Source: a virus | Lineage: Duplodnaviria > Caudoviricetes | DNA: 64,000 nucleotides | Direction: 5' to 3' (one strand) | IMG/VR virus record: IMGVR_UViG_3300034420_000109 | Span: 23,977 to 87,976 of that record | Shown: positions 15,206 to 33,066 of the stretch, piece by piece | How the letters are laid out: each line of letters opens with the position of its first letter | Numbering within the stretch: position 1 is the first letter of the stretch | Position numbers and translations under genes: made by a program | Notes under the pieces: generated by a model | Told to the model about the DNA's origin: nothing | What the model saw: only the letters and a program-made list of their open reading frames with translations | The model's database searches: none

Positions 15206-16699
15206 TCACAGCTTGGTGAACGGCAACCACGTTGCTCCGGTCGGAATGATGTTCTTCACCACCCCGTGGTGCTTGGGGAGGGCGACCCGGAGGGCGCCGA
15301 CCAAGAACGCGCCCCACTTGTAGCTGAGATCATTCAGCGCGAAGGGGATCTTGGTCATGGGGAGCATCTGGACCCAGCGGAGGCTGGCGGGCTCGGGGGT
15401 GAGCAGCACCGTGTAGCTGGCGCCGGGCAGGACCGTGTTCAGGTCGGTCCAGGTGGTGGTGGCACCGGCCTTGAGGACCGTGGCCACGAGCCGGTAGTCC
15501 GAGGGGTCGGTGGAGCCAGCCTGGCGGCTGCGGTAGATCTTGTAGTGGGTTTCCTTGTTCGTCGCGGAGGCGCTGATCACCACGTCGAAGCTGCGGCCCG
15601 CGACCATGGTGGCGGGGGCGGAGATGGCGAGCAGGGAGACCTCGCCGGGGGTGCAGGCTTCCACGGCGTAAGTGTAGTTCCCGGCCACGGCCCACTTGTA
15701 GGTCCCGGTGGCCTTGTCCAGCCACTTCGAGCCCGCGGTGGCGCCGACAGAGACGGTGGCGGTGACGCCAGCCGGGGCCGCGGCGGTGCAGAGGGCGGCG
15801 CTCGAGGCCGAGACCGGCTTCTTGGTCTCGTTCAGGAAGGCGCTGGGGTCGAAGTCGATGGTGCCGTCGGCCGCAGCCACGCTGGAGTAGCGCATGCCAC
15901 GGGTCAGGACGCCGACCTGGGTGGAGGGCACGCCGCTGTCGAGGTTCACGCGGTAGCCGCTCTCGAGGTAGGAATCGAGGTCGGCCTTCACGAGACCCGA
16001 CATGAAGGACAGGGACGGCTTGCCCCAGTTCCCCTCGTCCGTGATCTTGTTCGCCAGCAGGCTGAGGGGGCCGTGGCTGGCGAGGGGCTCGCCGTTCAGG
16101 TCCACCACGTTCTGCGGGGCGTTCGCGGTCACGGCGGCGATGATGCCGGTCGTGGCGTAGGGGTTCTTGGTCTTGTCGCCGAGGAAGAGGTCCGTCTCCA
16201 GGGAGTAGAGGATCTCGAGGGCGGCGTTGACGTCTTCCTCGTCGATGGCGCTGAAGTCCACGATGCCCTGCTTGTTCTGCAAGGTGGCCTGGATGCTGGT
16301 GATGATGGAGGCCGAACGCCGGGAGAAGTAGGTCCCGAGTTCGGTGATGAGGCGGGTGTAGTCACCCTGCCGCTCCACCTGGCCGGAGCCCAGTTCGTTC
16401 GCGTTGGCGGAACCGGCGAAGGCGCCGATGCCCGTCTTCACGACGGCCTGGTCCAGCACAGACCAGGACTCGCGGCGGTTCGGCAGGATGCGCTTGAAGA
16501 ACTTGAAGTGCTCCTGCTTCACGGTCGCGGAGGCCAGGACGGGGTCCATGTTCTCCACGCGGAAGGAACCACCCGCGGTGAGGGCCGAGAGGTCGGTCCC
16601 CTGCCCCATGGTCTGGAGGGCCTTGGTGATTTCGGCCAGCGCCGGAGAGGCCCCGGAATCACCCAGGGCGGAGAGGATGTCGAGGGGGCCAGTGTTCAT
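15206..16699 (-). CDS. Major capsid protein (SPO1/A511/K-like)
   Basis: 497 aa; GSFRVENMDPVL, ETDLFLGD and C-terminal GALRVALPKHHGVVKNI follow the Herelleviridae capsid pattern; preceded by scaffold and protease. Confidence 0.85.
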   Translation of the reverse strand: MNTGPLDILSALGDSGASPALAEITKALQTMGQGTDLSALTAGGSFRVENMDPVLASATVKQEHFKFFKRILPNRRESWSVLDQAVVKTGIGAFAGSANANELGSGQVERQGDYTRLITELGTYFSRRSASIITSIQATLQNKQGIVDFSAIDEEDVNAALEILYSLETDLFLGDKTKNPYATTGIIAAVTANAPQNVVDLNGEPLASHGPLSLLANKITDEGNWGKPSLSFMSGLVKADLDSYLESGYRVNLDSGVPSTQVGVLTRGMRYSSVAAADGTIDFDPSAFLNETKKPVSASSAALCTAAAPAGVTATVSVGATAGSKWLDKATGTYKWAVAGNYTYAVEACTPGEVSLLAISAPATMVAGRSFDVVISASATNKETHYKIYRSRQAGSTDPSDYRLVATVLKAGATTTWTDLNTVLPGASYTVLLTPEPASLRWVQMLPMTKIPFALNDLSYKWGAFLVGALRVALPKHHGVVKNIIPTGATWLPFTKL

Positions 16700-16762
16700 G
16701 GCGCTTTCTCCTCATGTGCCCGGCGAAGCCGGGACGGGGGTTGGAAGGGGGGCGGGATTGCC

Positions 16763-17644
16763 CTAGAGGTTGACGGGGATGCCGTAGTTGATGGCGCGGT
16801 TGGCGCTGGCGATCTGGGTGGGCGAGTGCTTCCCCTCCAGGGCCATCTTGAAGAGGTCGTTGCTCGTGACCTTGGGTGCGCCGCCGCCATCGGACAGGGC
16901 CTTGGAGACATCCACCTGGGCCTTGGAGGGCATGGCGGGGGCGGTCTTGATGATCCCCGCCAGCTGCGCGGCCGTGGCTTCGGCCGTGGCCTTGGCGGCG
17001 TCGGCGGCCTCCAGGGACTTGCCGATCTCGGTGCTCAGGGCGACGGTCTTCTTGGACATTTCAGCCAAGAATCCGGCGATGGCGTCCAGGACCTTGTTCT
17101 GGTTCTCCTGGCCTTCCACGATACGCTTAAGGAGTTCGACACCATGCCCAACAGGCATAAGGCTTTCGGTGGGATCTCCTTCTGTTCCACTGAAACCTTC
17201 TGACTTGCAGCAGCAGGGAGTTTTCCCGCATTTATGGCAACAGGATAGAGCCTTGGCAATTTCTTCGGCGGGGATCTTGTGGTGCTGGGCCAGGAAGGTA
17301 ATGGAGGCCAGGATTTCAGCCTTGGTGACCTCGCCCTCGTCCTCCTCGTCGTCAGAGCCAGGGCCAGGGCCGCCGGATTCGTCGTCGCCTGAACCGCCAG
17401 CGCCTCCTTCCTGGCCTTCGCCGCCCGGGGCACCACCCTCACCGCCAGCCTGGGCCGCGGCGGCCTGACCAGCCTGCGATTCACTGCGCGCCGCTTCAAG
17501 CTGCTCGTCAGTGGGGGCGCCACCCTCGGCGCGGGGGTCCTTGCCCTGGATGGCGTCGGGGTCTTCCGCGCCAGGCTGGGCCTTGGCGACGGTGCCACCG
17601 AGAAGAAGGGTCTGGGCGAACTCGAGGATGGAGAGGGCGGACAT
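16763..17644 (-). CDS. Capsid scaffolding protein
   Basis: Lies between protease and capsid genes; acidic G/E low-complexity region, coiled-coil segment and several xxK-A/S sites. Confidence 0.7.
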   Translation of the reverse strand: MSALSILEFAQTLLLGGTVAKAQPGAEDPDAIQGKDPRAEGGAPTDEQLEAARSESQAGQAAAAQAGGEGGAPGGEGQEGGAGGSGDDESGGPGPGSDDEEDEGEVTKAEILASITFLAQHHKIPAEEIAKALSCCHKCGKTPCCCKSEGFSGTEGDPTESLMPVGHGVELLKRIVEGQENQNKVLDAIAGFLAEMSKKTVALSTEIGKSLEAADAAKATAEATAAQLAGIIKTAPAMPSKAQVDVSKALSDGGGAPKVTSNDLFKMALEGKHSPTQIASANRAINYGIPVNL

Positions 17645-17653
17645 GGGTGCCTC

Positions 17654-18664
17654 CTACCGGGTGGAAGCCGCAGGATCTGCGGGGTTGGGGTCGAGAGCGA
17701 ACTGCTTACCCGATCCGAGGAGGGCCAGGAGGTAGGCCATGCCCTCGGCGGGGGTGATTCCAGCGTTAACCACGCGGGCCAGCCACTCGGTCATCGAGAA
17801 GGGGGGGCGGGCGTCGAGGATGGCCTGCTTGATGAGTTCCGCCTTGTCTTCAGTCAGGCGAAGACCGGCGGGGATCGAGCCGCCGTCGGCCTGGGGCACC
17901 ATGATCCCAGCAGCGCGCAGGGCGGAGTCGGCATCGGCCGGAGCCGGGGCGCCCTTGAAGGAAGAGAGCAGGTTCAGCGCCACGGAGAGGTCGGTGCCGG
18001 GGCGCATGGCCTTGGCGAAAACCTCAAGGGGAACGGTCGAGACCTGCTGAACGCCAGTGTTGACCGGATTCCTGGAGAAGCCGATGGAGTGCCAGCGTAG
18101 CTTCTTGATGGTGCGGGACCCGTCGGCGCCGTCCTCCCGGCCGCCGGGTAGCAGGGACCCAGCAACCGATGGATACCAAATCGCGGGGGGGCGGACCTGC
18201 AGGGTGTCCCAAAACCAATTGGCGGCGCGCGCGAATTGATTGCCAGGATCGGAGGACTTGAAGATGGCGGCCTTGACCCAGACGCGGGGAATGTCGCCAG
18301 CCTTCCGGGTGATCCGGACATCAAGGGGGCGACCGATTTCACGGGCGTAGGGATTCGAGGGATCCAGCCGGGTCTCGCGGATCATCTGCCAGACGGTGGC
18401 GTGGTCCAGATCGATGCGGCCGTATTTGAGGAAGTAGTCCTTGGAGGTCTCCAGGGCTTCCGCCAGGATCCGCTCGTTCTGCACATCGCGGGCCTCGTTG
18501 GAGGCCTCCATGTAGAGGACGCGCTCGCCACCCTCGATGGCAGGGGTGGCCTTGCAGAACTGGGTGCCGCAGTCGAGGGAGAGGATCGGCGCTTCAGTGG
18601 AGCCCGCGGCCAACCCCACACTCGTGAGGATAGCGGCTGCGTTTTTGAGAACCCCGGTGTCCAT
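17654..18664 (-). CDS. Prohead protease
   Basis: EASNEARDVQNERI...YFLKYGRIDLDH...SVAG...WHSIGFSRNPVN fits SPO1-like prohead proteases; start placed at MDTGVLK (18664). Confidence 0.8.
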   Translation of the reverse strand: MDTGVLKNAAAILTSVGLAAGSTEAPILSLDCGTQFCKATPAIEGGERVLYMEASNEARDVQNERILAEALETSKDYFLKYGRIDLDHATVWQMIRETRLDPSNPYAREIGRPLDVRITRKAGDIPRVWVKAAIFKSSDPGNQFARAANWFWDTLQVRPPAIWYPSVAGSLLPGGREDGADGSRTIKKLRWHSIGFSRNPVNTGVQQVSTVPLEVFAKAMRPGTDLSVALNLLSSFKGAPAPADADSALRAAGIMVPQADGGSIPAGLRLTEDKAELIKQAILDARPPFSMTEWLARVVNAGITPAEGMAYLLALLGSGKQFALDPNPADPAASTR

Positions 18665-18784
18665 GCGACGAAGTATGCCACCCGGGAATTGGCCGATTTC
18701 CAATTGTTGCGGGACCCGCCTTTACTCCAGATTGCACCGCCAAGGGCCGCGGCATGAGAAAATCCGGCATCCCGGGAGGACGCC

Positions 18785-21658
18785 ATGCCCATGCTCCACG
18801 ACGGAATTGATGACTCTGAATCCATCGGCAAGGCTGACGTGGGCCCCCAGGAAGACGAGAACCGAGCGATCCGAGCGAGCATGAAGACCCCCCAGGCACA
18901 CGGCCGCCACGAGTTCCGCGCGGCGAAGTGGACGGCCGGGAACGGACACCCACGGTGCCTGGTGTGCGGGGATGAGGAACCGCAGGGCGGCATGTGCGCC
19001 GGGCTCCACGGCGCCGTCCCCACGAACGGGGACAGCATGGCTCAGGTTGCGAAGGGCGAGCCGTCGGAGGCGCAGCGGCGCGCCGGGAACTACCCCAAGA
19101 CGCACTGGCAGATGCACGGGATGCGGATCGCCATCGAGAACCTCGCCGGGACCACGCGGAGCGGCGTGGACCACAAGGGCGAGCCGTGGTCGGTGGTCAT
19201 GCCCTACCACTACGGATACATCAAGGGCACCGAGGGGGCGGACGGGGACCACCTCGACGTGGCCATCGGGCCGCTCATGGGCCAGGGCACCGAGGCCCAC
19301 ATCATCAACCAGCGCGGGCCGGACGGGGAGTTCGACGAACACAAGGTGTTCATTGGCTACCCCAGCCGTCAGGCAGCCATCAACGCGTTCAGGGAGGGGC
19401 GGAGTGACGACCCTGACGAGGTTATGGGGGCCGTGATCACCGTTCCCATTGACGAGCTGAAGCGGTGGGTTGACGAAGGATGCCTCCAGGAAGAAGCGGT
19501 GCTGAAGGCGGAGACCACGCACGTAAAGGCGCACTACCGGATCCAGAACGGCCGCGTGGTCTACATCCCGAACTACGACCGGGAGGTCCATGGTGACCAC
19601 CCCGAGGCCACCCTTCACCAGCGGACGGTGCTGGGGACGAACACGGCCGGGATCCCGTTCATCCGGGCCACCGATGCCGCGGACAGGGAGAAGGTCCTGG
19701 AGGCGGCCCGGTCCCTTGGGGTGCATCCGGAGACCCAGCGGCCCAGCGGAGCGAATCACCACGGGCGCCAGAATTCCTACCCGACCATGTTCTTTGCCAC
19801 CTACGAGCAGGCCCAGCAGGTCATGGATGCGGTGCGCGCGCGGCACGGAGACGTGGCGCATCCGCACACCACGAGCGCAGCCCCAACCCGGGGGCGCGGT
19901 GGACTGCAGGCGGCGCTGGCGGCCCACAACCAACGGCGAGACGCAACGCGAGCCGCCGTGGTCATCACCTCCGTCCAGGCGGCAGCCCACGAGGAATCAC
20001 CCGATGCGGTGCTGGCGAGTGCCATGGAACGAACTGGCGCCGACGCGGTGCGACGTCGGTTCTTTGGGACGGCCCCGGCGGGAGTCCTCGACCGAAGGGT
20101 CTACCTGGAGAACACCACCCCAGGCCACAACAAGCTCTACGTGATCGACCTCCGACAGGTAGGGGAGGGCCAGTGGGTGGTGAACGCGGGAAACGGGCGA
20201 ATTGACGGCCGGAGCATGACCGTCCGGACGAAGACCGACCGGCCCATGTCCCAGGCCGCAGCCAATGCCCTGGTGAGTCAGATCAAGGCGGAGAAGATGG
20301 GTGGCGGATACGTCTCCGTCGAAGACAGCGCCAGCCCCAGCCGCCGATACAGGTTCACCATGATGGACAATTTCAGCCACCCGATGGTGAACAGCACCAC
20401 TCCCCTCGCAGGGGAGGCGCACCGGGGCCCGGGCGTCTCGGTTCAGACCCCCGCGCGGCCTGCTGCTACACCTGCACCGACCCCAACCAGGGCCCCCACG
20501 CCAGCTGCACCGGCCGCTCCTGCTACACCAGCACCAGCGCGCGCGGCCGGGAGCACGGCGGCCCAATACAGCGCCCTCCGAGAAGCCGCATGGAACGCCG
20601 GGAACGTTGCCCGAAACACGACCGCGGACAACACCCCCGCATCATTCACGGCATCCATGGCCGCCCACCGGGCCCACCTTGCCGCAGAGCAAGTGGCGCG
20701 CGCGCTCGGGATCCCGGAGGCGAGTGACCGTGGCGCCGTGTGGCACAGCAACCGGGCGCAGCACTGGCTCCAGCACGCGAAGCAGCAATGGACCGGGGCC
20801 GTAACCCCAGCCCTTGCCCGCAGCGGGACCAATTCTGCCGTCGCCAATGGGTATGGGTTCGCGGACGCGGTGCGGGCCCTCGAGGGGAGTCAGAACATCC
20901 TGGCCCAGCGCCCCCCGGGGGCAGCCCTTCCGAGCGGAGTCACGGAGGCGAGCTACACCAGCGCGGTGGCCAACCACGACGCCAACCTCAAGTCCCTCCG
21001 AATCGGGCACGAAATTGAACAAGAGATCCGGCCAGGGACCACGCCAGGGGCCCAGGCTGCCGGTGTCACCAGCACGATCATGGACCGGATCACCCGGGGG
21101 ACCATCCCCCACGAGCATGCTGCCCCGGCCACCCGGATCGTCGAATCCATGCAGAATCTCCTCAACGCGGCGAACGCGGCCCGGAACATGGCTGAAGACC
21201 CCGCGGCCGAGCCGGACACGCTGAAGGTGGTCGCTCGCACGGTGGCTGCGATGCACACGGCTGCAACCACGGCGATGACGGCCGCGCCGGAGGCCATTCT
21301 GTGGCGGAATGCCCCGAAACGAGTGGTTGAAGACCTGGCGAAGTTCGGGGAGAAGGCGAAGCGGGAGGCAGACCGCCGGGCAGCCATGCCCCGGAAGTCG
21401 GATCCGCGCTACGCCACCGGGCACGAGCAGCACATGGAGCGCGCGGCCCAGGCGCACTCGGAGGCCGTCGGAACCAACGTGCAGCGGCCGAAGCTGATCC
21501 GAGCCATCGACGCCCACAAGCAGGCGGCCGTCTCGGTCTACCACGCGGCCCTGGCGGCCCCGAAGGGATCCCGAGAGAGGACGCACCTGATGCAGAAGGC
21601 CCAAGAGCACGCCCAGCACGCCCGGGACTTCGTGGGCAAGCTGAATGCGCGGAGGTAG
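18785..21658 (+). CDS. Polyvalent protein 1: Cys knuckle, inorganic-pyrophosphatase-like domain, GANHHGRQ domain, WGR domain and helical C-terminus
   Basis: AGNYPK...IAIEN...HYGYIKGTEGADGDHLDV...FDEHKV (PPase-like); YLENTTPGHNKLYVI...GRIDG...KMGGGY (WGR-like); RBS ggagg. Confidence 0.75.
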   Translation: MPMLHDGIDDSESIGKADVGPQEDENRAIRASMKTPQAHGRHEFRAAKWTAGNGHPRCLVCGDEEPQGGMCAGLHGAVPTNGDSMAQVAKGEPSEAQRRAGNYPKTHWQMHGMRIAIENLAGTTRSGVDHKGEPWSVVMPYHYGYIKGTEGADGDHLDVAIGPLMGQGTEAHIINQRGPDGEFDEHKVFIGYPSRQAAINAFREGRSDDPDEVMGAVITVPIDELKRWVDEGCLQEEAVLKAETTHVKAHYRIQNGRVVYIPNYDREVHGDHPEATLHQRTVLGTNTAGIPFIRATDAADREKVLEAARSLGVHPETQRPSGANHHGRQNSYPTMFFATYEQAQQVMDAVRARHGDVAHPHTTSAAPTRGRGGLQAALAAHNQRRDATRAAVVITSVQAAAHEESPDAVLASAMERTGADAVRRRFFGTAPAGVLDRRVYLENTTPGHNKLYVIDLRQVGEGQWVVNAGNGRIDGRSMTVRTKTDRPMSQAAANALVSQIKAEKMGGGYVSVEDSASPSRRYRFTMMDNFSHPMVNSTTPLAGEAHRGPGVSVQTPARPAATPAPTPTRAPTPAAPAAPATPAPARAAGSTAAQYSALREAAWNAGNVARNTTADNTPASFTASMAAHRAHLAAEQVARALGIPEASDRGAVWHSNRAQHWLQHAKQQWTGAVTPALARSGTNSAVANGYGFADAVRALEGSQNILAQRPPGAALPSGVTEASYTSAVANHDANLKSLRIGHEIEQEIRPGTTPGAQAAGVTSTIMDRITRGTIPHEHAAPATRIVESMQNLLNAANAARNMAEDPAAEPDTLKVVARTVAAMHTAATTAMTAAPEAILWRNAPKRVVEDLAKFGEKAKREADRRAAMPRKSDPRYATGHEQHMERAAQAHSEAVGTNVQRPKLIRAIDAHKQAAVSVYHAALAAPKGSRERTHLMQKAQEHAQHARDFVGKLNARR

Positions 21659-21661: not shown

Positions 21662-23080
21662 ATGGCAGCCGTCGCCGAAAGGCCCGCCACCCATCAAGAG
21701 AAGCGGCACGTAACCGGGCACTACCGGACCCTGCACACGGGGAAGGTGGTCTACGTCCACGATTTCAGCGCCAGCCACGCCATCGCCAGCCACAGCCGGA
21801 GCGCACACCTGCACGAGCGGTCGGTGCTGCTGCAGAACAGGAACTCGATCCGCGTCTCGAACGCGGCGGACCTCCGCGCCATGCAGACGGCCGCGCAGCG
21901 GGAGGGGGTGGAGTTCACCCGCCGCCGGGCAGGGGCGAACCACCACGGGCGCCAGGGGGCATACGACCACCTCGACTTCCAGACCCCCGAGGCGGCCAGC
22001 AGGGTGATGGAGCACGCGCGCCTGGCGTTCGAGGGCCACAACGCCCCCATCGAGGGCCAGGGACCTGCCCAGGAGCCACGCGAACCCCGCGCGCGCGCCG
22101 TCCGACCCCCCGTCCACCCCCAGGCCGACCTTGGGCCCCAGGAGGGGGCAGACAACGGCCCGGACACGGACCCGGCACCTGCGCCTGCAGCCGCCCGCCC
22201 CGCCGCGACCGAGGAGCCCGTGGACGTGGACTCCCAGTTCGCCCGAATCTTTGGTGAGCGCATCGAGACCCCTGCCCCGGACGCGGAAGAGATCGGAGAG
22301 GCCTTCGAGGCCATCTTTGGGAAGCTGCCCAGCATTGAGCCACAGGTCCACGTCGTGAGCGCAGCGGACGCGGGAAGGGTCAGCCAGGCCGGGGGCTTCA
22401 CCGAGGTGACGTTTGACTCGTCGGCGATTCAGATCTGGAACGCCCACATCAAGGTGGATCCAGCAATCCACCTGGTGGAGATCTACAAACACTTCGGGCC
22501 CGGCGGGAGCATGCGAGTTAGCGGCGACGGCGGCAGCGGACTGACCATCACCTACAACAACAGGACCCGCGCCGGGAACTGTGAGATTACCCGGCACTAC
22601 AGCGGCCTCGGAGGCCCCAACTCTGCCGTAAGCCACTCCTATTTCCAGGTGCCATCTGGCAATCAGGGGGAGAACCAGGGCAAAAAGCTGTTTGCAGCGT
22701 CCATGGACTTCTACGAGAAAATCGGCATCAAGAAGATCACCGTCCACGCCAATATCGACATCGGATCCTATGCGTGGGCACGTTACCGATTCGTCCCGAA
22801 CGACGCCCGGCACTTCGGCGTGATTAAAACAGCGGTCGGCAGGTTCAGGCTGGCCCAGACGTGGCTGCGCGACTTCCCTGAATTCAAGCGGGCCATCGAG
22901 GGGGCCGACCCCAAGGGCGCGTGGGTGATCGCGGACCACATCTCGGACCAGATCCGAGCGGGCAAAATGACGAGAGAAGAGAACCCGATGAAGAACCTCC
23001 ACTGGTATGGGCACATCGACATGACGAATGCAGCCCACGTTCGGAAGGTGCGAGAATACGTGGGCAGGGGGGCGGCATGA
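21662..23080 (+). CDS. Polyvalent protein 2 with C-terminal GNAT-fold acetyltransferase domain
   Basis: HSYFQVPSGNQGENQGKKLF...FYEKIGIKKITVHANIDIGSYAWARYRF fits the GNAT motif A/B pattern of phage polyvalent proteins. Confidence 0.65.
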   Translation: MAAVAERPATHQEKRHVTGHYRTLHTGKVVYVHDFSASHAIASHSRSAHLHERSVLLQNRNSIRVSNAADLRAMQTAAQREGVEFTRRRAGANHHGRQGAYDHLDFQTPEAASRVMEHARLAFEGHNAPIEGQGPAQEPREPRARAVRPPVHPQADLGPQEGADNGPDTDPAPAPAAARPAATEEPVDVDSQFARIFGERIETPAPDAEEIGEAFEAIFGKLPSIEPQVHVVSAADAGRVSQAGGFTEVTFDSSAIQIWNAHIKVDPAIHLVEIYKHFGPGGSMRVSGDGGSGLTITYNNRTRAGNCEITRHYSGLGGPNSAVSHSYFQVPSGNQGENQGKKLFAASMDFYEKIGIKKITVHANIDIGSYAWARYRFVPNDARHFGVIKTAVGRFRLAQTWLRDFPEFKRAIEGADPKGAWVIADHISDQIRAGKMTREENPMKNLHWYGHIDMTNAAHVRKVREYVGRGAA

Positions 23081-23271
23081 CCCAGGAGAAGGGCACCGAA
23101 GGGTTCTACCTCGACGAAGAGGGACAGCCGCAGGACCGCGACCTCCACGGGGACTGCCAGCCGGAGAACATGGCCGGGTTCAACCGCGAAATGTGGATCT
23201 GGGGCCTCGAGGCGGGATACGAGCCCGAAGGCTTGACCCGTCTCTACGGCCCCAGGCCCGAAGGCGTCTAG
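23077..23271 (+). CDS. Small acidic protein (64 aa) translationally coupled to the GNAT gene; candidate immunity protein
   Basis: ATGA overlap at 23077-23080; MTQEKGTEGFYLDEEGQPQDRD... is D/E-rich. Confidence 0.6.
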   Translation: MTQEKGTEGFYLDEEGQPQDRDLHGDCQPENMAGFNREMWIWGLEAGYEPEGLTRLYGPRPEGV

Positions 23272-23273
23272 GC

Positions 23274-24320: not shown

Positions 24321-24341
24321 TGGGGCTCCTTTGCATTACCC

Positions 24342-24390
24342 ATTATGAGCAAGGCTCACCATTTGTCAAGTCGAAGTGATAAAAATCACT
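24342..24390 (-). promoter_or_regulatory. Sigma70-type promoter of the HDAC gene with an upstream palindromic operator
   Basis: TTGACA (24369-24364) N16 CATAAT (24347-24342); perfect palindrome AGTGAT-AAAA-ATCACT at 24375-24390. Confidence 0.75.
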
Positions 24391-24454
24391 GGACAGGGAA
24401 CACGAGCCCCACCTGGTCAAGTCTGCAAAAATGAGAAGCATCCTGGAGGCGGAG

Positions 24455-27154
24455 ATGAACCACTTGAACGCTATCTTCAGCACGGCCCAGCGGCTCCAGG
24501 CGAGCCGATCCTTCCTCCGGGACCTCCGGGGCCTGGACAAGACGGCCGAGGGCGCCGAGTTCGCCAAGGCCATCGGGGAGGCCGCCGCCCTGGGGGCGAC
24601 CCCCGAGGACGTGGTGGAGCAGGTGGTCAAGGCCATGGCCGGGAACGAGGGGCTGGCGCTGGAGATCCTGATGGCGGTCCAGGAGATCGCCAAGGCCCAC
24701 GTCGAGCACCATACCCGCACCCTGGCCAACGGGAAGACGGTGGACGTGAAGGCTTACGAGACGGCCCGGACGGGCGCGATGAAGCAGACCACCATGGCCC
24801 ACGGGGCCACCTTCCACGCTATGCGGACGAAGACCCCCGAGGCCCATGAGAACGCCGCGGCAGCCCACGAGGCCGCCGCGAAGCAGCACGAGGACGCGCA
24901 CGGGGTCCACCCCATGGACGTGCCGGAGGTCGGGAAGGAACACGCGAACCTGAAGGCCCAGCACCAGATGAGCGCGGATTACCACCGCCAGGAGGCCGCG
25001 ACCATGCGCCACGGGCATGGATACGAGGTCCAGGCCAACCGGGCCGTCACCGCGTCCCAGGGGACCAAGGCGGCCATCACCACCCACCAGAGCCAGATGG
25101 CCCACCAGAAGGCGGCCGAGGAGCACAAGAAGGCCCACGAGTTCGACCCGGGCAAGGGGCACGACCAGCAGGCGGCCATGCATACGGCCCACGCCCAGGC
25201 GGCCCAGGCGGTCAACCAGTCCATGAACTCCCCCCACCAGGGATCCGACGTGAAGGGCGCGGCCGACGCCAGTCTCAAGGCCTTCCGGGCCACGACGTAT
25301 GCCCACGAGGGGAAGGGCCTGACGAGGGATGCCCACGCGGCAGCCGCCAAGGCCCACGAGGAGGCCATCAACCAGCACATGGGGATCCACGGGGCCAAGG
25401 AGAGCGACGAAGACGGCCACCACGGTCAGATCGCCAAGACCCACATGGCCCTCCACGCCTACCACTCCGCCAAGGCCCAGGCAAAGACCCCGGAGGAGGT
25501 CGCCAAGGCCCAGGTCGAGGGATACACCCGGGTGCAGGACGGCAAGGTCATCCATGTGGGAGCCTACGACAGCAAGCGACAGGCGGCCTTCGAGGCGAGC
25601 CGGGTGGCCCACGAGGCGAGCCTCACCGCCAAGTCGAAGACGGCCCACACCGCAGCTGCAGCCCTTCACGGGAAGGCTATCGCCGCCCACCGGGAGGCCT
25701 GGAATGTGACCAACCACGAGGGCCGCCGGTCCATGCACGATGCGAACATGGCCGAGCACGGGGACATGATCAGCGGGCACCGGGCCATGGCCACTGCCGG
25801 TGGCGGGTTCGAGGATCACCCGTTCCGGGCCCGGGCGGCCAGCAACCTCGCCCCCGACGTGGAAAGCGTCAAGCCGGGGGAGGAAGACGAGGCTGCGGCG
25901 GCCCATGATCGTGCCGGAAGCGCCCATGTCACGGCGATGGACGCAGCCGGGGCCAACCGATCCCACCACAGCAGTCAGGCTGATCAGCATGCCCAGGACG
26001 CGAGGAAGATCCGTGAGCGGAAGGATGCTCCGAACGATGAAGACGCAGAAGCGCACGAGGAACTCGCCACGTCAGGGGGGATCGACCTATCCAAACTCGT
26101 CCCCGGCCACAACACGGAGACGACGAGAAAATCACTCGATAGGCTTGTGAAGTTCGGCATGGCAAAGAAGGATGGCACCAGATACACGGCCACCCCAGAA
26201 GGAGAGATTGGAAAAGCCGAGGGTCCCATGACCACCCTTGGCGGCGGGACCGACCTCGCCACGAAGAGCGGCGGCGCCGCGCTGGCGGTCGAGGGCCGCC
26301 CCGGTAAGGAAGGCCGGAAGAAGCAGGACGGCATGGATTACTGCGATGCCTGCGACACCGCCTACCCGGAGGGCACCAAGCATGAGTGCCCCGGGACGGT
26401 CGCCAAGGCCCATGTCGAATCCCACACCCGGGTCGTCGGCGGGAAGACGGTGCAGGTCCAGAGCTACGACACCCACCACGCCGCAGCGATGAAGGCTTCA
26501 TTTGCCGCACAGAGCACCACCGCCCAGGCCCAGAATCCTGAGCACCACACCCATGCCGCCGCCAGCCACATGAAGGCCGCTGAGGGGCACCGCGAGGCGG
26601 CGAAATACGCCCCGGAGGACTGGCAGAAGAAGGGCCACGAGGACAACGCGAAGCTGCACGAGCACTACGCCCAAGCCCACCACGCCAAGGCGAAGGCTGC
26701 CGACCAGCGCGCGGATACCGGTGTGGACACCCCCCAGCACACCCCCCAGGACCTCAAGGAACTGGAGAACCACCACGACTATGCCGGGTTCGGATACCTC
26801 GGCCACGAACACCGAACCGACGAGACGGACAAGCACCTCACTGATGCAGCGAACAAGGCGGGGATCTCCAAGCACGAACTCGCCGCCCATGCCCTCAGCA
26901 AGTCCGGCCGCCACATGATGGACGACCACACGAACCTCGGGGAGAAGGCCAGCGAGGACGAGAAGGTCGCCCACTTCCAGAGGCACCTGACGAGCCCGAA
27001 GACCGCGAAGGAACACGGGATCAAGGAATACGCCAAGGACCTCGAGGAACGCGCCCCGGCGAAGCCTGCTGCTGGTGCGACGGAGCCGGTCACAGTCAAG
27101 CCCGCCACCCCAGAAAAGGGATATCGGATCCCACCGAAGCCGACCACCAAGTAG
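24455..27154 (+). CDS. Polyvalent protein 3: His/Ala-rich helical repeats, three beta-hairpin tags, a wHTH and a Cys knuckle
   Basis: Repeated HxxAAxxH units; three [IV]AKA-[HQ]VE-x-[HY]TR...G-K-x-[VI] motifs; RBS ggaggcggag before ATG 24455. Confidence 0.7.
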   Translation: MNHLNAIFSTAQRLQASRSFLRDLRGLDKTAEGAEFAKAIGEAAALGATPEDVVEQVVKAMAGNEGLALEILMAVQEIAKAHVEHHTRTLANGKTVDVKAYETARTGAMKQTTMAHGATFHAMRTKTPEAHENAAAAHEAAAKQHEDAHGVHPMDVPEVGKEHANLKAQHQMSADYHRQEAATMRHGHGYEVQANRAVTASQGTKAAITTHQSQMAHQKAAEEHKKAHEFDPGKGHDQQAAMHTAHAQAAQAVNQSMNSPHQGSDVKGAADASLKAFRATTYAHEGKGLTRDAHAAAAKAHEEAINQHMGIHGAKESDEDGHHGQIAKTHMALHAYHSAKAQAKTPEEVAKAQVEGYTRVQDGKVIHVGAYDSKRQAAFEASRVAHEASLTAKSKTAHTAAAALHGKAIAAHREAWNVTNHEGRRSMHDANMAEHGDMISGHRAMATAGGGFEDHPFRARAASNLAPDVESVKPGEEDEAAAAHDRAGSAHVTAMDAAGANRSHHSSQADQHAQDARKIRERKDAPNDEDAEAHEELATSGGIDLSKLVPGHNTETTRKSLDRLVKFGMAKKDGTRYTATPEGEIGKAEGPMTTLGGGTDLATKSGGAALAVEGRPGKEGRKKQDGMDYCDACDTAYPEGTKHECPGTVAKAHVESHTRVVGGKTVQVQSYDTHHAAAMKASFAAQSTTAQAQNPEHHTHAAASHMKAAEGHREAAKYAPEDWQKKGHEDNAKLHEHYAQAHHAKAKAADQRADTGVDTPQHTPQDLKELENHHDYAGFGYLGHEHRTDETDKHLTDAANKAGISKHELAAHALSKSGRHMMDDHTNLGEKASEDEKVAHFQRHLTSPKTAKEHGIKEYAKDLEERAPAKPAAGATEPVTVKPATPEKGYRIPPKPTTK

Positions 27155-27176
27155 GTCGCATCCGGGACGAATTCAT

Positions 27177-27203
27177 AGGGGCCCTTCGGGGCCCCTTCCC
27201 TTG
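27177..27203 (+). terminator. cUUCGg tetraloop hairpin, probable terminator
   Basis: AGGGGCCC-TTCG-GGGCCCCT, a perfect 8-bp stem followed by TCCCTTGT. Confidence 0.65.
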
Positions 27204-27288
27204 TGGGACAATGAGCCGCAGAATTGAGAAGGCCCGGGGCGTTGGAGCGCCACCGGGCCAGCATCACAACCCCTTCCAGGAGGATTCG

Positions 27289-27837
27289 ATGCAAGCAGAG
27301 AATACCACCCCAGCAGGAAACCGATATTGGCGCCGAGAGGGCGGGAAGATCGAGATGGAATTAACCCAGGGGAAAACATGCATCCTGGACGAAAGCGACC
27401 TGGGGAAGATTTGTTACCTGAAGTGGAGAGCATCTAAAAATCACGAGCGATTCTACGCGAAGACACATGCATACGGCCGAGATAGGAAGCGTCGTGAATT
27501 GGGCATGCACACGCTTTTACTTGGTAATCCATGGCCAGGGAAGGGAGCCCATGTCGATCACCACGATGGGAACACCCTCAACAATTGCCGATCAAACTTA
27601 AGGGCAACCGGTGCCGCCGGGAATGCTGCAAACAAGAAAAGGCCATCGAGCAATACGACCGGGTTTAAAGGTGTTTCGGTGAACCCAAAATGCACCATCC
27701 GGCCATTCCGTGCATTGGTTCAAAAGGGAGGGAAGAAGGTCTATTCCGCACAATTCGCAACAGCGGAAGAGGCGGCGGAGGCCTACGACAGAGAATCGAG
27801 GGTCCATTTTGGGGAATTTGCACGACCCAACAAGTAG
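27289..27837 (+). mobile_element. HNH_3-AP2 homing endonuclease
   Basis: HVDHHDGNTLNNCRSNLRAT followed by NTTGFKGVS...FRALVQ...FATAEEAAEAYD (AP2); visibly lower GC. Confidence 0.9.
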
Positions 27838-27870
27838 ACCAATGGGCCGCATGAGACAATCCCAACGGAG

Positions 27871-30800
27871 ATGTTCATAATGAGCGACTGGCAAGGCATC
27901 CCGATTGAAATCACGCGCAACCCGGGCGAATTCAAACTCGGGAAGGCTCCTACAGGGATCGGGTGGATGAGCCGGATGCGAGCATCCCAAGGCATCATCA
28001 AGGGTCTTGACGGCAATGGATTGTTCCCGACCAAGGCATGGATCGGTAAAAACAAGGAGTCAAAAACCGTCTTCGTCGTCCACCAGAGCCACGAAGACGG
28101 GGCGCACGATGAAAACAAACTCGTGCTCGGGTTCGATGACCCGGTGACGGCGGCAGACACCATCATGGCGCATTACCCGAAAGGGAAGCACCCCATCGAT
28201 TCAATTCATCAAATTCCCGAGGGTGGGCTTGATGACTGGATCGCCGGGAACGAAGCCTGGGCCGCCACAGCCCATGATCATCATGGGCGCCCCCACGAGC
28301 ATGGCAAAACGGTAGTGCTTTTCAATGGAGAGCGTCTCCCGGCGGAGCCCGCCGACCTGGATCTACCAGAGGAAGTGGCGAAGGCGCACGAGCCCCAACA
28401 GCCTGGGGATCGATGGGTGACCATGCATCCCAACGGGCCCGGGACGAAGGGGAGCCCCGTCCTTCTCCGGCCCGTGGCGGGACATCCCGGGCTGCACCGC
28501 GTGGTGGGAGGAGCCGGGGGGAAACTGAACTTTCTCCGGGTGAATCTCACCAAGAGCCCGGACCAATACAAGCAGGAGTCCCTCGAGCGCCGGAAACAGA
28601 CCCAGGCCGAAGAGAAGGCCAAGCTGGCGGCCATGAGCCCGGAGCAGCTGGAGGCCCACCAGCAGAAAGAGGCCCAGCTGAAGGAACACCGGAAGCGCGC
28701 CGAACAGGAGTTCATCAAGAAAGTCCTCGGGGATGACAGTCAGGAGGGAGAGGCCCCGGACCTCTTCTCGAACACCCCCGATGCCGATCCCAAGGCGGCG
28801 CGGGCCTACCACCGGGAGAGGTTGAAGCAGGCGCTCGCCGCATGCAAAGAGGCCGAGCGAAAGATCACCCTCGACGCCGAGACGCGGGTCGCGGCCGGGC
28901 TCGCCGAGGTGGGCGGGAGTGCCACCCCAGGCCTCGCCATCAACGCCATCCTGACCACCAAGGAAAACCGAGGGCCGGGATACGACCGGGCCATCGCCGA
29001 GCGCGCCGTGGCGAACGGCCTGACGGCGGAGAAGCTGACGGCCGCCAGCGCCGCCTGGCGGGAGGCCCAAGGCCTGGCGCCCAAGGCGGACCCCACCCAG
29101 CCCGGGGCCCCGCGGGATGAGGCGTCCGCGGCGGCGGCCGTCGAGATGCACACCGCGACGAAGGAACTCCGGGCCCGCCAGGCAGAGGCCACCGCCAAGG
29201 CCGTCGAGGAGGCCCTGTCGGACCACAAGAACCTGGGGGCGCTCCTGAGAGCCCGTCAGGAACTCCGGGGCGCCTACGAGGAGGCCACGGCCGCGCGCAC
29301 CGGCCGGGTCTTCGAACAGGGGTTCCTGTCCACCACCAGCGAACCCACGCCAGAGGACAAAGAGCGCCTCGTGGCCGACCTTTCAGAGCAGCTGCTGCGC
29401 GCCCATGTCCAGACCTTCCTGGATGAGGTCGAGACCAACCACCCGGACAACGAGGGGATCAACGGAGCCTGGGACCCGAGGGAAGAGGAGGGCATGGCCG
29501 CGTCTCGTGGCGGGGCCGCGTGGACCGCCCTGCACGAGGCCGGGCTGGCCATCTTCGGCGCCGGGCTCCTCGACCGAGACACCGTCGAGACCCTCGGGCC
29601 CGAGGCCGCTGCCCAGGTCCTGGCCAGGGGCATCCGGTCCCGGTTCAGCCCGGAGGACCAGAAAGAGATCCTGACGGCCCTGGAGAACCATCACGTCCAG
29701 GAGCAGCAGGTGGAACTCCCCCAGGCCACCCAGGAGGCCCAGCGCCTCCGGGCGGAGGCCCAGACGATGAAGGACCAGCTGCTCACCACCCCCAAGGACT
29801 TCGCGGCGGCGGCGGAGATGCACCGGACCCGTATCGAGGCGCTGAAGCAGGCCCGGACCACCCTGGGGGCGGCCTTGGGCCGGTTCGAGGCGCGCGCGGC
29901 CCTGGTCGCGGCTCTGCAGAGCACCCCGGCGAAGGACCTGCAGGTGCCCATGGGCCGGACCACGCCGGAGCGGGCCATGCAAGCGGCGGCGGCCATGGGC
30001 CTGCAGCCGGACGGATACACCCTGGACCACAAGGGCGGGGAGGCGGTGCTGACGATCCCGGAGGCCAGTCAAGACAAGCTCCTGAAGCCGGTGGACCACG
30101 CCGCGGTGGCCGAGCGGGAACTGGCCATGAGCATCAAGCGGGGCGACATGGACGAGGCAGGCTACCTGCCCCCGGGGTTCGCCAGCCGCACTGCGAGCCG
30201 CTACGACAACCCACTCATGGAGCCCAAGGTCTTCCAGCGCCGGGTGGAACTCCCCGAGGGGGCGGACCACGAGCACCTCGAGCCCGCGCTGGCGCGCTAC
30301 ATCGGGCAGCGGTGGGCGGACGGCCACCGGGCGACGGACATCAACGCGGACATCCGTGGCGCCTCCATCCGAGACGAGATCCCGGCCCACCTGCACGGGG
30401 CCCTGGACAAGATCGTGGACAAGCTGGTGCCCACGCACGAACTGGTGCGGGACGACAGCGGGGAGCCCGTCGCGGAGATGCACAACGGGCAGATTCTCCG
30501 GGACACCGCCGGTGGCGTGGTCTACAAGACGAAGATGCGGGAGCCCAAGCAGATCGCGGCCGACGTGGAGGCCATGGGCCGGAGGTTCCTGGACGCATCT
30601 GGGGACGCGGAGACCCTGGAGGGGCAGGGGGTCGATTCGGACCACCCAGACTTCAGGGAGGCGATTCATCGCACCCTGGCCGAAGACCCCCGCCTGCAGG
30701 CCGCGCACGCCCCCATCGGGGAACTCACCGCCATCCAGCGGCAGAGCATCCGGGACTGGTTCTACCGGGAGCACCACGGGAAGAAGGGGGCCGAACTGGC

Positions 30801-33066
30801 GGACGCCCTCCAGGCCCTGGGCCCCGAACCCCCGAAGTTCGATGAGACCACCGGGGGCATGAGCCTATTTGACGACCTGGGCCCCATGGAGAGCCAGGCC
30901 TGGAACGACTGGCAGGAGAAGCACAAGGCCATCATCGAGAAGCACGGGGACACCCCGGGCACGAGCCCGTGGGCCACCTACATCCAGGCCATGGGGGGGC
31001 TGAAGCAGGCCACGGAGGCCATCCAGGGCGAGATGCAGAGCAAGCTCGCCGAGGGGTTCCATGGCCACTACGGCCGCCTGACCGGCAAGGTGCTCCAGCT
31101 GGGGACCGGGGACATCGCGCACTTCAGCAGCCACCTCAAGGCGACGTCAGGGGCCGAGAAGGCGGCCGAGCTTGAGGCCATCCGTCGGTCAAAGCAGGCG
31201 CAGATGCAGCGCGGCGGGGCCGGACGGTTCCGAAGCGTGAACGTCAGGGAGCGCATGGAACAGGCCGGGGAGGCTGGGCTGTTCGGACAGGGCGGGGCCC
31301 TGTTCGGATCCGAAGAACTCTCCGGCGCTGCGCCAGCGGAGGAGACCCCGAAGTGGGAGAAGCCGGAGCCAGCACCTGGTGAGCGCCTGCGCCTGGGTGG
31401 GCGGATCGAGGCGCAGATCGCCGCAGCCATGCCCCACGCGTCGGCGCCGTTCCAGAGCCGGACCCTCAAGCCGGTCAAGGTCGCCGAAGGGATGAGCATG
31501 GATGGCCGGTTCGCCCCCCAGCAGCGGGGCGTCAAGGCCTTCAACCACCTGCGGCGCATGGGACTGTTCTACGGCGCCGGGAGCGGGAAGACGGCCGTCC
31601 TGATGGGCAGCGCGTCGAGCCTCGTCCACAGCGGCAAGGGCAAGAAGATCCTGATGGCTGTTCCCAGCATCGTCCAAGAGCAATTCGCAGGGGAGGCCGC
31701 CAATTTCCTGGACCCCACCACCGGGATCCGCCTCCACGCCGTGCCCGGAGAGTCCTTCGAGCAGCGCCTGCAGGCTTACCGGGATCCCGAGCGCCACGCC
31801 GTCGTCATGACCCACGCGGCCGTGCGCGACGACTCGGTGAAGCTGCTCGCCAGCCACCGTGGGATCAGCGAAGACGCCGCGGCAGAGTGGGCCATGAAGG
31901 CCAGCGCCGAGGACCTGAAGACCAACCTGCGTGAAGCATTCGCCAAAGAGGGGGCCAACTTCGACGCCCTGATGGTGGACGAAGGCCACGATGCCCTGAA
32001 CCGCAAGGGGAAGCCGGACAGCCTCCTCGCCAAGATCATCGACGCCCACGGCCACAACGCCAGCCACTACATCGGCGCCACCGGCAGCCCGGTGAAGAAC
32101 GACCCCAGCGAGGCACACGACTGGCTGCACAAGATCGACCCCGTGCGCTACCCCCGCGAGGGCCGAGACGAATTCCTGCGCCGCTACGGAACCGACAGCG
32201 CGGTCAGCCGCCGGGCACTCAAGGCCGAGCTTTCCCGCTACTTCTTCGCAGAGCGGGTGGGCAGCGGCGTGACGGCCCACCACAACGACGAGACGATCCA
32301 GCTGACGGCCGAACAGCATGCGGACGTGGAGCGCATCGAGCGCGCCGCGGGCAAGCTGCGGCTGGGGGAGGACCCCGTGAGGTGGGCCAAGGAACTGGCC
32401 CCCCGCTCCTTCATCGGGAAGCCGGAGGAGGAGCACGCGGCCATCGCCGAGGGGGTAAAGAAGGCCGTCGGGACCTTCCGGGAGGCCGCCATGGACCGGG
32501 CCATCAACATCGGCGGCGGGAAAATGCACGCCGCGGTGAAGAAGGCCCGGGAGGCCGTGGCCGAGGGCAGGCCCATGATCATCTTCGCCCACCGGCTAGA
32601 GGCCGTGGAAGCGCTCCACAAGGCCATGGAGGAGGCTGGCTTGCGGGTCGCCAGCATCACCGGCAAGGACTCCTCGAAGGACAAGCCGGGCAAGCTGGCC
32701 GCATTCCAGGGCGCACCTGGCCGCCAGGCCACCGCCGACGTCCTGATCGCATCCGACGCCGCTGCCACCGGGGCGAACCTCCAGCGCGCCAAGGAACTGA
32801 TCCACTTCGACCAGCCGATGACCTACAAGACCCACGAGCAGCGCACCGCCCGCATGGACCGCCTGGGCCAGACGGAGGACGTGAACGTGACGAACCTGCT
32901 GGCGGACCACGCCTACGACCGAACCGCCCGGGAGCGGGTGAAGCGGAAGCAGACCCTGGCGGACATCTACCAATCGAAAGAAGGCTACCTGGACGACAGC
33001 GGCATCGCGCACACTCTGCGCGCGCTGCGGGCCCGGGCCGCCCAGACCAAAGAGGAGGCTGCGTGA
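27871..33066 (+). CDS. Large polyvalent protein (1731 aa): degenerate PPase-like N-terminus and C-terminal SF2/SNF2-like helicase (DarB-like)
   Basis: YGAGSGKT (Walker A), MVDEGH (motif II), GATGSP (III), MIIF (IV), SDAAATGANLQ (V), EQRTARMDRLGQ (VI). Confidence 0.85.
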   Translation: MFIMSDWQGIPIEITRNPGEFKLGKAPTGIGWMSRMRASQGIIKGLDGNGLFPTKAWIGKNKESKTVFVVHQSHEDGAHDENKLVLGFDDPVTAADTIMAHYPKGKHPIDSIHQIPEGGLDDWIAGNEAWAATAHDHHGRPHEHGKTVVLFNGERLPAEPADLDLPEEVAKAHEPQQPGDRWVTMHPNGPGTKGSPVLLRPVAGHPGLHRVVGGAGGKLNFLRVNLTKSPDQYKQESLERRKQTQAEEKAKLAAMSPEQLEAHQQKEAQLKEHRKRAEQEFIKKVLGDDSQEGEAPDLFSNTPDADPKAARAYHRERLKQALAACKEAERKITLDAETRVAAGLAEVGGSATPGLAINAILTTKENRGPGYDRAIAERAVANGLTAEKLTAASAAWREAQGLAPKADPTQPGAPRDEASAAAAVEMHTATKELRARQAEATAKAVEEALSDHKNLGALLRARQELRGAYEEATAARTGRVFEQGFLSTTSEPTPEDKERLVADLSEQLLRAHVQTFLDEVETNHPDNEGINGAWDPREEEGMAASRGGAAWTALHEAGLAIFGAGLLDRDTVETLGPEAAAQVLARGIRSRFSPEDQKEILTALENHHVQEQQVELPQATQEAQRLRAEAQTMKDQLLTTPKDFAAAAEMHRTRIEALKQARTTLGAALGRFEARAALVAALQSTPAKDLQVPMGRTTPERAMQAAAAMGLQPDGYTLDHKGGEAVLTIPEASQDKLLKPVDHAAVAERELAMSIKRGDMDEAGYLPPGFASRTASRYDNPLMEPKVFQRRVELPEGADHEHLEPALARYIGQRWADGHRATDINADIRGASIRDEIPAHLHGALDKIVDKLVPTHELVRDDSGEPVAEMHNGQILRDTAGGVVYKTKMREPKQIAADVEAMGRRFLDASGDAETLEGQGVDSDHPDFREAIHRTLAEDPRLQAAHAPIGELTAIQRQSIRDWFYREHHGKKGAELADALQALGPEPPKFDETTGGMSLFDDLGPMESQAWNDWQEKHKAIIEKHGDTPGTSPWATYIQAMGGLKQATEAIQGEMQSKLAEGFHGHYGRLTGKVLQLGTGDIAHFSSHLKATSGAEKAAELEAIRRSKQAQMQRGGAGRFRSVNVRERMEQAGEAGLFGQGGALFGSEELSGAAPAEETPKWEKPEPAPGERLRLGGRIEAQIAAAMPHASAPFQSRTLKPVKVAEGMSMDGRFAPQQRGVKAFNHLRRMGLFYGAGSGKTAVLMGSASSLVHSGKGKKILMAVPSIVQEQFAGEAANFLDPTTGIRLHAVPGESFEQRLQAYRDPERHAVVMTHAAVRDDSVKLLASHRGISEDAAAEWAMKASAEDLKTNLREAFAKEGANFDALMVDEGHDALNRKGKPDSLLAKIIDAHGHNASHYIGATGSPVKNDPSEAHDWLHKIDPVRYPREGRDEFLRRYGTDSAVSRRALKAELSRYFFAERVGSGVTAHHNDETIQLTAEQHADVERIERAAGKLRLGEDPVRWAKELAPRSFIGKPEEEHAAIAEGVKKAVGTFREAAMDRAINIGGGKMHAAVKKAREAVAEGRPMIIFAHRLEAVEALHKAMEEAGLRVASITGKDSSKDKPGKLAAFQGAPGRQATADVLIASDAAATGANLQRAKELIHFDQPMTYKTHEQRTARMDRLGQTEDVNVTNLLADHAYDRTARERVKRKQTLADIYQSKEGYLDDSGIAHTLRALRARAAQTKEEAA

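Follow-up and report, generated by a model that had tools for sequence, protein, structure and literature searches.

Candidate prohead-protease sites at the module borders of polyvalent proteins encoded beside the head genes of an 88-kb phage

Beside the genes for the prohead protease, the scaffold and the capsid protein of an uncultured phage lie genes for three large polyvalent proteins, here called PV1, PV2 and PV3, and all six products carry the short sequence phi-x-K-A, mostly as [VI]-x-K-A. The locus lies within a 64-kb stretch of DNA (IMG/VR record IMGVR_UViG_3300034420_000109, positions 23,977 to 87,976; hereafter the window), which is the final 64 kb of a single 87,976-bp contig with a G+C content (GC) of ~67% and belongs to the 88-kb genome of a myovirus-type phage. 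It raises the question of whether a motif at which the capsid protein would be matured also marks the points at which the same protease takes the polyvalent proteins apart. We consider it probable that PV1-3 are co-assembled into the prohead, cut by the prohead protease at module borders and ejected with the DNA. Genes were called by third-position GC together with family scans (Pfam, PHROG), and those on which the argument turns are the following.

15206-16699, minus strand: major capsid protein (MCP), 497 amino acids (aa) (phrog_752, E 3.5e-50)
16763-17644, minus strand: scaffolding protein, 293 aa (position between the protease and MCP genes; site load)
17654-18703, minus strand: prohead serine protease, 349 aa (weak phrog_1028 match; fold; synteny)
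18785-21658, plus strand: PV1, 957 aa (PF18823 InPase, E 2.7e-40)
21662-23080, plus strand: g21662, 472 aa (starts directly with a hairpin module, described below)
24431-27154, plus strand: PV2, 907 aa (motif sites; 20 homologues)
27871-33066, plus strand: PV3, 1731 aa (PF18823, E 1.3e-20; Helicase_C; phrog_62, E 5e-67)
51653-52918, minus strand: MuF-like minor head protein (PF04233, E 3.7e-5, below the curated cut-off; head-morphogenesis PHROGs)
53139-55184, minus strand: portal protein (phrog_2662, phrog_12)

The PV block is thus on the plus strand, divergent from the minus-strand protease, scaffold and MCP genes, and the genes for MuF, portal and large terminase (51653-57147, minus strand) are 35 kb from the capsid/PV region. 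An initial annotation of this DNA had listed tetrapeptides of the [VI]-x-K-A type in these proteins, and every one of them was found in the gene named: VAKA, VTKA, IAKA and VSKA in the scaffold; IGKA, VAKG and VLKA in PV1; FAKA, VVKA, IAKA, VAKA (twice) and IGKA in PV2; and VAKA at residues 169-172 of PV3, which also has two VKKA inside its helicase domain that had not been listed. Two details needed amendment. The PV2 gene is real, but the start assigned to it, 24455, is Met9 of an open reading frame (ORF) starting at 24431; and the portal and MuF sites exist, but both genes lie outside the interval 15206-33066 in which they had been placed.

The ITKA of the MCP occupies residues 24-27 (16619-16630), giving a predicted maturation cut E-I-T-K26↓A27 (here and below the arrow marks the predicted scissile bond). 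Every one of 26 MCP homologues has K26, and conservation is at least 90% at I24 and A27. Around the site, E-I-T-K↓A-L-...-G-G-x-F-R-V-E can be aligned unambiguously with L-N-K↓A-L-E-A-G-...-G-G-A-F-R-V-E of SP-10 and SPO1-like phages, the SP-10 protein being annotated as a capsid precursor, and the site is aligned to D-V-V-K24↓S25-F-Q-T-G-Y-G of Staphylococcus phage 812; the A511-like phage LP-125 has A-L-K24↓S25-F-T-T-G-Y-G at the homologous position. The 439-residue capsid chain in PDB entries 9row, 9rox and 9roz corresponds to residues 25-463 of the phage 812 protein, so that the deposited sequence begins right after that Lys. In the scaffolds of Herelleviridae phi-x-K-S occurs 3-11 times, P4/P5 frequently being acidic, and the LP-125 protease is annotated as Peptidase_U35. 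In Bordetella phage PHB04 the MCP has E-L-Q-K↓A-L-Q and the scaffold three copies of L-x-K-S.

The gene order protease-scaffold-MCP is kept in seven relatives, in PHB04 and in Herelleviridae. The MCP is ~30% identical to those of PHB04 and of several 90-kb Pseudomonas, Aeromonas and enterobacterial phages, and 21-25% identical to the MCPs of SPO1-like Herelleviridae. Judged by these sequence comparisons, the head module (protease, scaffold, capsid) is related to that of PHB04 and more distantly to those of SPO1/Twort-like Herelleviridae. Felix O1 was considered as a relative and rejected; its capsid protein is unrelated and reported to be unprocessed (PMC3185647). Megablast of the 15-35 kb region against 50,697 phage records gave zero DNA-level matches, so there is no close cultured relative to work with.

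Since no curated family matches the protease, it was assigned on its fold, its synteny and the 43% identity that it shares with the correspondingly placed PHB04 gene. The sole family match, phrog_1028 (E 2.8e-7), covers residues 58-103, and a PDB sequence search with the protein gave no match. Local similarity to the SP-10 procapsid protease is found around A-S-x-E-x-x-D-x-Q-x-E...D-H, and the putative catalytic residues H101 (D-L-D-H) and S206 (W-H-S-I-G) are invariant in eight sequences, H101 aligning with the His of N-x-D-H in SP-10. When an AlphaFold (AF2) model was compared with 48,161 chains by VIA-align, the best match was T4 gp21 (5jbl_A; Z 10.8, root-mean-square deviation 3.3, 135 of 165 residues), well above unrelated rows and followed by the varicella-zoster virus protease (Z 7.0) and the human cytomegalovirus protease (Z 5.1). 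On this model the protease is taken to have the T4 gp21/assemblin fold. Its catalytic domain (~aa 52-228) lies between FCK51↓A52 (FCKA, residues 49-52; 18548-18559) and FAK231↓A232 (FAKA, residues 229-232; 18008-18019); the latter, directly after the domain, is invariant in eight sequences, and phi-x-K-A at 49-52, directly before it, is conserved as far as PHB04. This placement fits self-trimming at both ends. The scaffold has four sites (17579-17590, 17318-17329, 17249-17260 and 16898-16909), where 0.26 would be expected (P 3e-4). The MuF sites VLKA (52703-52714) and VTKA (52505-52516) precede the MuF domain and are both conserved in homologues to ~50% identity, and the portal site VAK126↓A (54804-54815) lies in the N-terminal region with K126 invariant in homologues to 26% identity.

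The homology to the mature N-terminus of the Kayvirus MCP, the invariant Lys, the site load of the scaffold and the sites flanking the protease together indicate that the prohead protease of this phage very probably cleaves at [VI/F]-x-K↓[A/S], and in this the initial annotation, which had proposed [VI]-x-K↓A, is supported. The initial annotation had also cited T4-type proteases. The likeness holds for the gp21/assemblin fold but not for the specificity, since the cut would most likely fall after Lys in (E)-[V/I/F]-x-K↓[A/S], as in the Herelleviridae enzymes annotated as Peptidase_U35, and not after Glu as in T4.

The motif is concentrated in the proteins that this protease would meet. The genome contains 26 [VI]xKA in total, 19 of them in MCP, scaffold, PV1-3, MuF and portal, which make up 24% of residues. 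With the MCP left out of the shuffle set because it had defined the motif, the scaffold, PV1, g21662, PV2 and PV3 together hold 14 copies, 4-5 times the 3.0 expected (P<3e-4; none of 3000 per-protein shuffles reached 14), and shuffling within 30-residue blocks had the same outcome as shuffling whole proteins. The other 77 proteins have 7 where 8.3 are expected. PV2 alone has five (0.8 expected, P 0.002), and 20 PV2 homologues have 83 sites (17 expected). We also took in the regions around MCP homologues (39-78% identity) of six relatives, which share the synteny. Copies seen and expected there were 21 and 1.15 in scaffolds, 39 and 9.8 in PV-side proteins, 11 and 1.8 in MCPs, 9 and 5.7 in tail and baseplate proteins, and 1 and 0.9 in proteases, that is, an 18-fold enrichment in the scaffold, fourfold in PV proteins and ~1.6-fold in the tail. 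The motif is over-represented in scaffold and PV proteins and at chance level in the other 77 proteins of the genome.

The residues upstream of the motif change between lineages, and they do so together in all of the presumed substrates. In the two distant relatives (L009 and L004), Arg stands at P5 in 12 of 13 capsid, scaffold and protease sites, in 9 of 19 PV sites and in none of 9 tail sites. In the window and the four closer relatives, Arg at P5 is found at 4 of 47 capsid, scaffold and protease sites, 0 of 58 PV sites and 2 of 16 tail sites, and Glu or Asp occupies P4 instead (20 of 47, 25 of 58 and 0 of 16, respectively). For the PV sites, distant and near lineages differ with P = 6e-7 by Fisher's exact test. 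Because the hairpin downstream of many PV sites is unchanged between the lineages, the upstream residues track the protease substrates and not the module. When a matrix was trained on nothing but scaffold and MCP sites, PV sites also scored higher than those of other proteins (P 0.005). That the PV sites would answer to the same protease as capsid and scaffold is well supported by these data, with covariation as the strongest evidence.

The initial annotation had placed the sites at module edges of the large proteins, and the domain layout bears this out: PV sites are found after the InPase domain in PV1 and PV3, in low-confidence linkers of PV2 and before a recurrent hairpin. PV1 consists of a leader, IGK16↓A, VAK90↓G, InPase (aa 95-229), VLK241↓A, a beta-hairpin, a domain shared with g21662, a WGR-like region and a helical C-terminus, with its sites at these positions.

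18824-18835, plus strand: PV1 site IGK16↓A
19046-19057, plus strand: PV1 site VAK90↓G
19499-19510, plus strand: PV1 site VLK241↓A

The Pfam InPase domain stands between V-A-K90↓G and V-L-K241↓A, both of which are conserved in orthologues. A relative (L003) encodes the InPase part as a separate 274-aa gene that ends 15 residues past the equivalent site. A cut at K241↓A242 would give PV1 a new N-terminus with which the natural N-terminus of g21662 aligns; g21662 itself is without any [VI]xKA, and its orthologues start likewise. Some of the PHROG families matched by InPase bear the names "minor head protein" and "virion structural protein", and a DarB-like match (phrog_10089) falls on the InPase region of PV1.

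PV2 begins with a helical leader (aa 1-94) that holds FAKA (24560-24571), VVKA (24623-24634) and IAKA (24686-24697). Three units of hairpin plus helical domain follow, opened by the sites at 24686-24697, 25499-25510 and 26399-26410, with an additional site at 26207-26218. The AlphaFold model (20 homologues, predicted local distance difference test (pLDDT) score 72) places sites 357, 593 and 657 in stretches of pLDDT <50 between domains of >90, and sites 65 and 86 within predicted leader helices. The sites hold position in the 20 homologues of 528-1582 aa, in which mean column identity is only 22%. Pfam scans recognised no domain in PV2, Pfam on the longer homologues gave DUF6900 only, and a Foldseek search of the model against the PDB returned generic helical repeats only, none with E <0.001. 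Within the helical domains, pairs of His spaced by seven are invariant in the 20 homologues (H225/H232, H309/H316, H338/H345, H706/H713 and H743/H750), and a short Cys-rich piece (aa 638-653, C-D-A-C ... H-E-C) lies between two sites. PV3 has InPase at aa 6-124, then VAK171↓A172 (28375-28386), a long middle region and a superfamily 2 (SF2) helicase at aa 1135-1700 (DEAD, ResIII and Helicase_C families; phrog_62). Two further sites of PV3, 1529 and 1556, are internal to the helicase domain, and the scaffold-trained matrix gives them low scores.

The hairpin is a module of ~25 residues, A-H-V-x-x-H-x-R-x3-4-G-K-x-V-x-V-x-x-Y-D, which belongs to no Pfam family and forms two short strands before the helical domain in the PV2 model. 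There are five copies in the window.

19520-19600, plus strand: hairpin module
21701-21775, plus strand: hairpin module
24698-24775, plus strand: hairpin module
25511-25585, plus strand: hairpin module
26411-26485, plus strand: hairpin module

Each copy opens a module or, in relatives, a stand-alone gene, and many sites precede it by a fixed spacing of 5-9 residues. In L004 and L009 the hairpin opens stand-alone genes after a leader of 10-14 residues ending in phi-x-K↓A, a short leader-site-hairpin arrangement resembling the targeting leaders of T4-type systems. L009, whose MCP is 47% identical to that of the window, also encodes an 1845-aa LPD1 protein (2615-8152) and a further protein of >870 aa (1-2618), both starting with a leader of ~12 residues that ends in R-x-I-Q-K↓A and is followed by the hairpin.

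From sequence we infer the scissile bond, the packaging and cleavage of the PV proteins, their ejection and any anti-defence role, and the course of events would be as follows. The protease would remove a 26-residue propeptide from the capsid protein, cut the scaffold four times and be cut itself at each end of its catalytic domain, and portal and MuF would be trimmed at their N-termini. The same motif would have been selected at the module borders of PV1, PV2 and PV3, which would be co-assembled into the prohead and cut inside it. Indirect pointers to their packaging are the protease motif, the location of their genes next to head genes and the published work on InPase (PMC5512222). The predicted products are an InPase module of ~150 aa and a fragment of ~716 aa from PV1; the leader, three hairpin-led helical units and the short Cys-rich piece from PV2; and an InPase module and a 1560-aa helicase protein from PV3. 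Ejection would deliver these along with the DNA, as it does in T4, phiKZ and P1. Segmentation into separate effectors, as first proposed, suits PV3 less well than PV1 and PV2, because PV3 has only one credible site, and PV2 for its part is without a recognisable enzymatic domain.

Several observations weigh against PV1-3 being packaged substrates of the protease. The PV genes are on the strand opposite to the head genes, with a histone-deacetylase-family (HDAC) gene that has its own sigma-70-like promoter embedded among them, and no PV protein is fused to MuF or portal domains. The protease model is of low confidence (mean pLDDT 53.5, core ~65-80), and Pfam gave no peptidase match for the protein even at E 10. 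The scaffold-trained matrix gives low scores to IGK16↓A of PV1 and to the sites in MuF and portal, and counts taken across homologous proteins are not independent events. Some of the site conservation may belong to the hairpin module, since that module follows roughly half of the PV sites at a constant distance. Nor is the motif sufficient by itself: a conserved VLKA lies within the capsid fold (aa 408) and two VKKA within the helicase, and all three probably remain uncut.

That the motif reflects chance or composition, K-A being frequent in Ala-rich, Lys-containing proteins, would suit the composition of PV2 (19% Ala, 7.7% Lys), but both kinds of shuffle preserve composition and fall far short of the copies seen, and the remaining proteins of the genome sit at expectation, which makes this explanation scarcely credible. 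A better case can be made for the motif as a structural part of a repeated module (a cap K-A-H-V-x-x-H-x-R and helical linkers) that was duplicated in cytoplasmic early or middle proteins that never meet the protease. Four of the ten [VI]xKA sites in the PV proteins of the window do lie 5-9 residues before a hairpin at fixed spacing, the window alone is no longer significant once hairpin-linked sites are set aside (6 against 2.8 expected), and the gene orientation and the promoter-bearing HDAC gene described above are as this explanation would have them. However, the hairpin-free PV2 sites at aa 44 and 65 (and 593 where the segment is present) keep their position in the 20 homologues, other hairpin-free sites flank InPase in PV1 orthologues, and the switch from Glu at P4 to Arg at P5 matches the switch in capsid, scaffold and protease exactly by lineage. 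The scaffold-plus-MCP matrix, moreover, still separates PV sites that are not linked to a hairpin (P 0.015), and we regard a purely structural motif as distinctly improbable.

The proteins could also be packaged in the head with the motif serving mainly as a docking or targeting signal, so that removal is confined to N-terminal leaders (as in T4, SPN3US and P1) and the internal sites stay uncut. Characterised prohead proteases do remove N-terminal propeptides and are not known to split proteins into modules (PMC10052503), P1 DarB appears in the virion proteome at its full predicted mass of 251 kDa (PMC9024508), and the PV2 leader concentrates three conserved sites, of which 65 and 86 are in predicted helices. 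Against this, PV2 sites 357, 593 and 657, PV1 site 241 and PV3 site 171 are in exposed low-confidence linkers and are conserved like the leader sites, and the internal borders are gene borders in relatives. We consider docking without internal cleavage unlikely, and cleavage of PV1-3 at their module borders inside the prohead remains the reading we prefer. A bolder extension of it, which we hold to be rather less likely than not, is that the capsid-maturation protease acts as a polyprotein processor in the manner of RNA viruses: cargo modules encoded in giant genes would be separated by the motif, each cut would expose an N-terminal hairpin tag for packaging, DNA retention or ejection, and modules could be swapped, fused or split at cut sites without losing delivery.

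The remaining features of the region are as follows.

6.5-13 kb, minus strand: baseplate genes
23077-23271, plus strand: 64-aa ORF, 3' of g21662
23274-24320, minus strand: HDAC gene (PF00850, E 1e-32)
27211-27837, plus strand: HNH homing endonuclease gene (PF13392, phrog_99), between PV2 and PV3

The initial annotation had noted that some modules differ in GC, and one of them, the InPase module of PV3, does show a GC break at a site. Residues 1-171 of PV3 are encoded at GC 0.57 (third-position GC (GC3) 0.68) and the rest of the protein at GC 0.69-0.71 (GC3 0.86-0.92), so that the break coincides with K171↓A172; the neighbouring HNH gene has a GC of 0.54. The HNH gene and the PV3 InPase module thus form one low-GC block (27211-28383) ending at the predicted cut site, which suggests that the module was replaced by co-conversion with the homing endonuclease.

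The HDAC gene lies on the opposite strand within the PV block, an arrangement conserved in two relatives (L008 and L010), and the sole strong sigma-70-like promoter in 15-34.5 kb (TTGACA-16-CATAAT, 24369..24342) drives this gene and not PV1. A plus-strand ORF at 23028-24434 (468 aa) was rejected as a high-GC artefact, with a GC3 of 0.64 against 0.92 in the overlapping minus-strand frame. The C-terminus of g21662 is a GNAT-like stretch (N-Q-G-E-N-Q-G-K). A search for 8-mers upstream of genes turned up GCAAAGGA at six of them, where it overlaps the ribosome-binding-site-like AAGGAG, and also a GCGGGACC element, but neither of the two sorts the PV genes into early or late. The 8-mer GCGGGACC/GGTCCCGC is found in five intergenic regions, one of them the 81-bp spacer that separates the divergent protease and PV1 genes (18704-18784), and may be a regulatory element. 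In PHB04 (MF663786.1, 308-13907), genes for a 2097-aa methylase and a 1518-aa helicase stand directly upstream of protease, scaffold and MCP and are co-oriented with them. The methylase opens with I-L-L-T-K↓A (residues 5-9), and the large PHB04 proteins otherwise have only a few copies of L-x-K-[AS], with no enrichment.

It is established that prohead proteases process internal and ejection proteins (T4, phiKZ, SPN3US) and that polyvalent proteins form a class. Novelty would lie in finding the motif of the capsid protease at borders within polyvalent proteins, in a hairpin that becomes the new N-terminus and in subsite preferences that co-evolve across substrates; a full-text literature search that did not cover subscription journals found no paper describing such an arrangement. 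If true, our reading would link two separate literatures, on proteolytic head maturation and on polyvalent anti-defence proteins, and explain how working units could arise from polyvalent proteins that have no peptidase domain themselves. It would also provide a sequence rule for predicting head cargo and cut points, in which the motif is derived from a phage's own MCP and scaffold and used to scan its proteome, as well as a portable design, leader or hairpin plus site, for loading foreign proteins into capsids. The lineage covariation test can be applied to any phage clade from sequence data alone.

A close parallel in head maturation is offered by the Herelleviridae (812/K, A511/LP-125, SPO1 and SP-10), whose homologous capsid protein has its cut site aligned with that of this phage (phi-x-K↓S/A, residues 24-27), whose gene order protease-scaffold-capsid is the same and whose scaffolds are motif-rich, with acidic P4/P5; P1' is mostly Ser there and Ala in this phage. 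In T4 (gp21; internal proteins and Alt) and in phiKZ, 201phi2-1 and SPN3US (gp175/gp245), an assemblin-fold protease likewise cuts capsid, scaffold or core, itself, portal and packaged internal proteins at one short consensus (PMC10052503, PMC9026906). Short N-terminal leaders ending in the motif act in these systems as targeting peptides, and the products are ejected into the host (PMC10052503, PMC9026906). The PV proteins resemble such ejection proteins in carrying the same cleavage consensus as their own capsid and scaffold. These systems differ from ours in cutting after Glu (L/I-x-E or A-x-E), whereas the cut here is predicted to follow Lys. The reported substrate cuts in SPN3US, furthermore, remove N-terminal propeptides, only the protease losing a C-terminal one (PMC10052503), whereas the sites described here are internal, between modules.

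The Dar system of P1 (DarB, DarA, DdrB) offers a giant helicase-containing anti-restriction protein that is packaged in the head (PMC9024508), as PV3 presumably is. DarB (250 kDa) is packaged via an N-terminal signal, and its ORF number (10) comes just before those of portal (11) and prohead protease (12) (PMC9024508). It differs from the PV proteins in that no processing is reported and it is listed at full predicted mass (PMC9024508), and the P1 MCP is cut after Glu120; DarB also combines a methyltransferase with its helicase, whereas Pfam and PHROG scans found no methyltransferase in PV3. A 2811-aa polyvalent protein has been detected in phi24B virions (bioRxiv 10.64898/2026.04.10.717836). 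In the polyvalent proteins of Iyer et al. 2017, large multi-domain proteins with InPase, SF2 helicase and LPD-type domains are likewise encoded beside virion genes, with predicted delivery with the DNA and modules shuffled between relatives (PMC5512222), and InPase, for which virion packaging has been predicted and which is occasionally fused to portal, is described as a phage-only domain of such proteins (PMC5512222). PV1 (InPase and further modules) and PV3 (InPase and SF2 helicase) similarly combine several conflict-type domains in one polypeptide. For the proteins of Iyer et al., self-processing by a zincin-like metallopeptidase domain of their own was proposed (PMC5512222), a built-in peptidase domain being common in the class though not a requirement; Pfam and PHROG scans gave no peptidase family match in PV1, PV2, PV3 or g21662, and in this phage the capsid protease motif would take that role.

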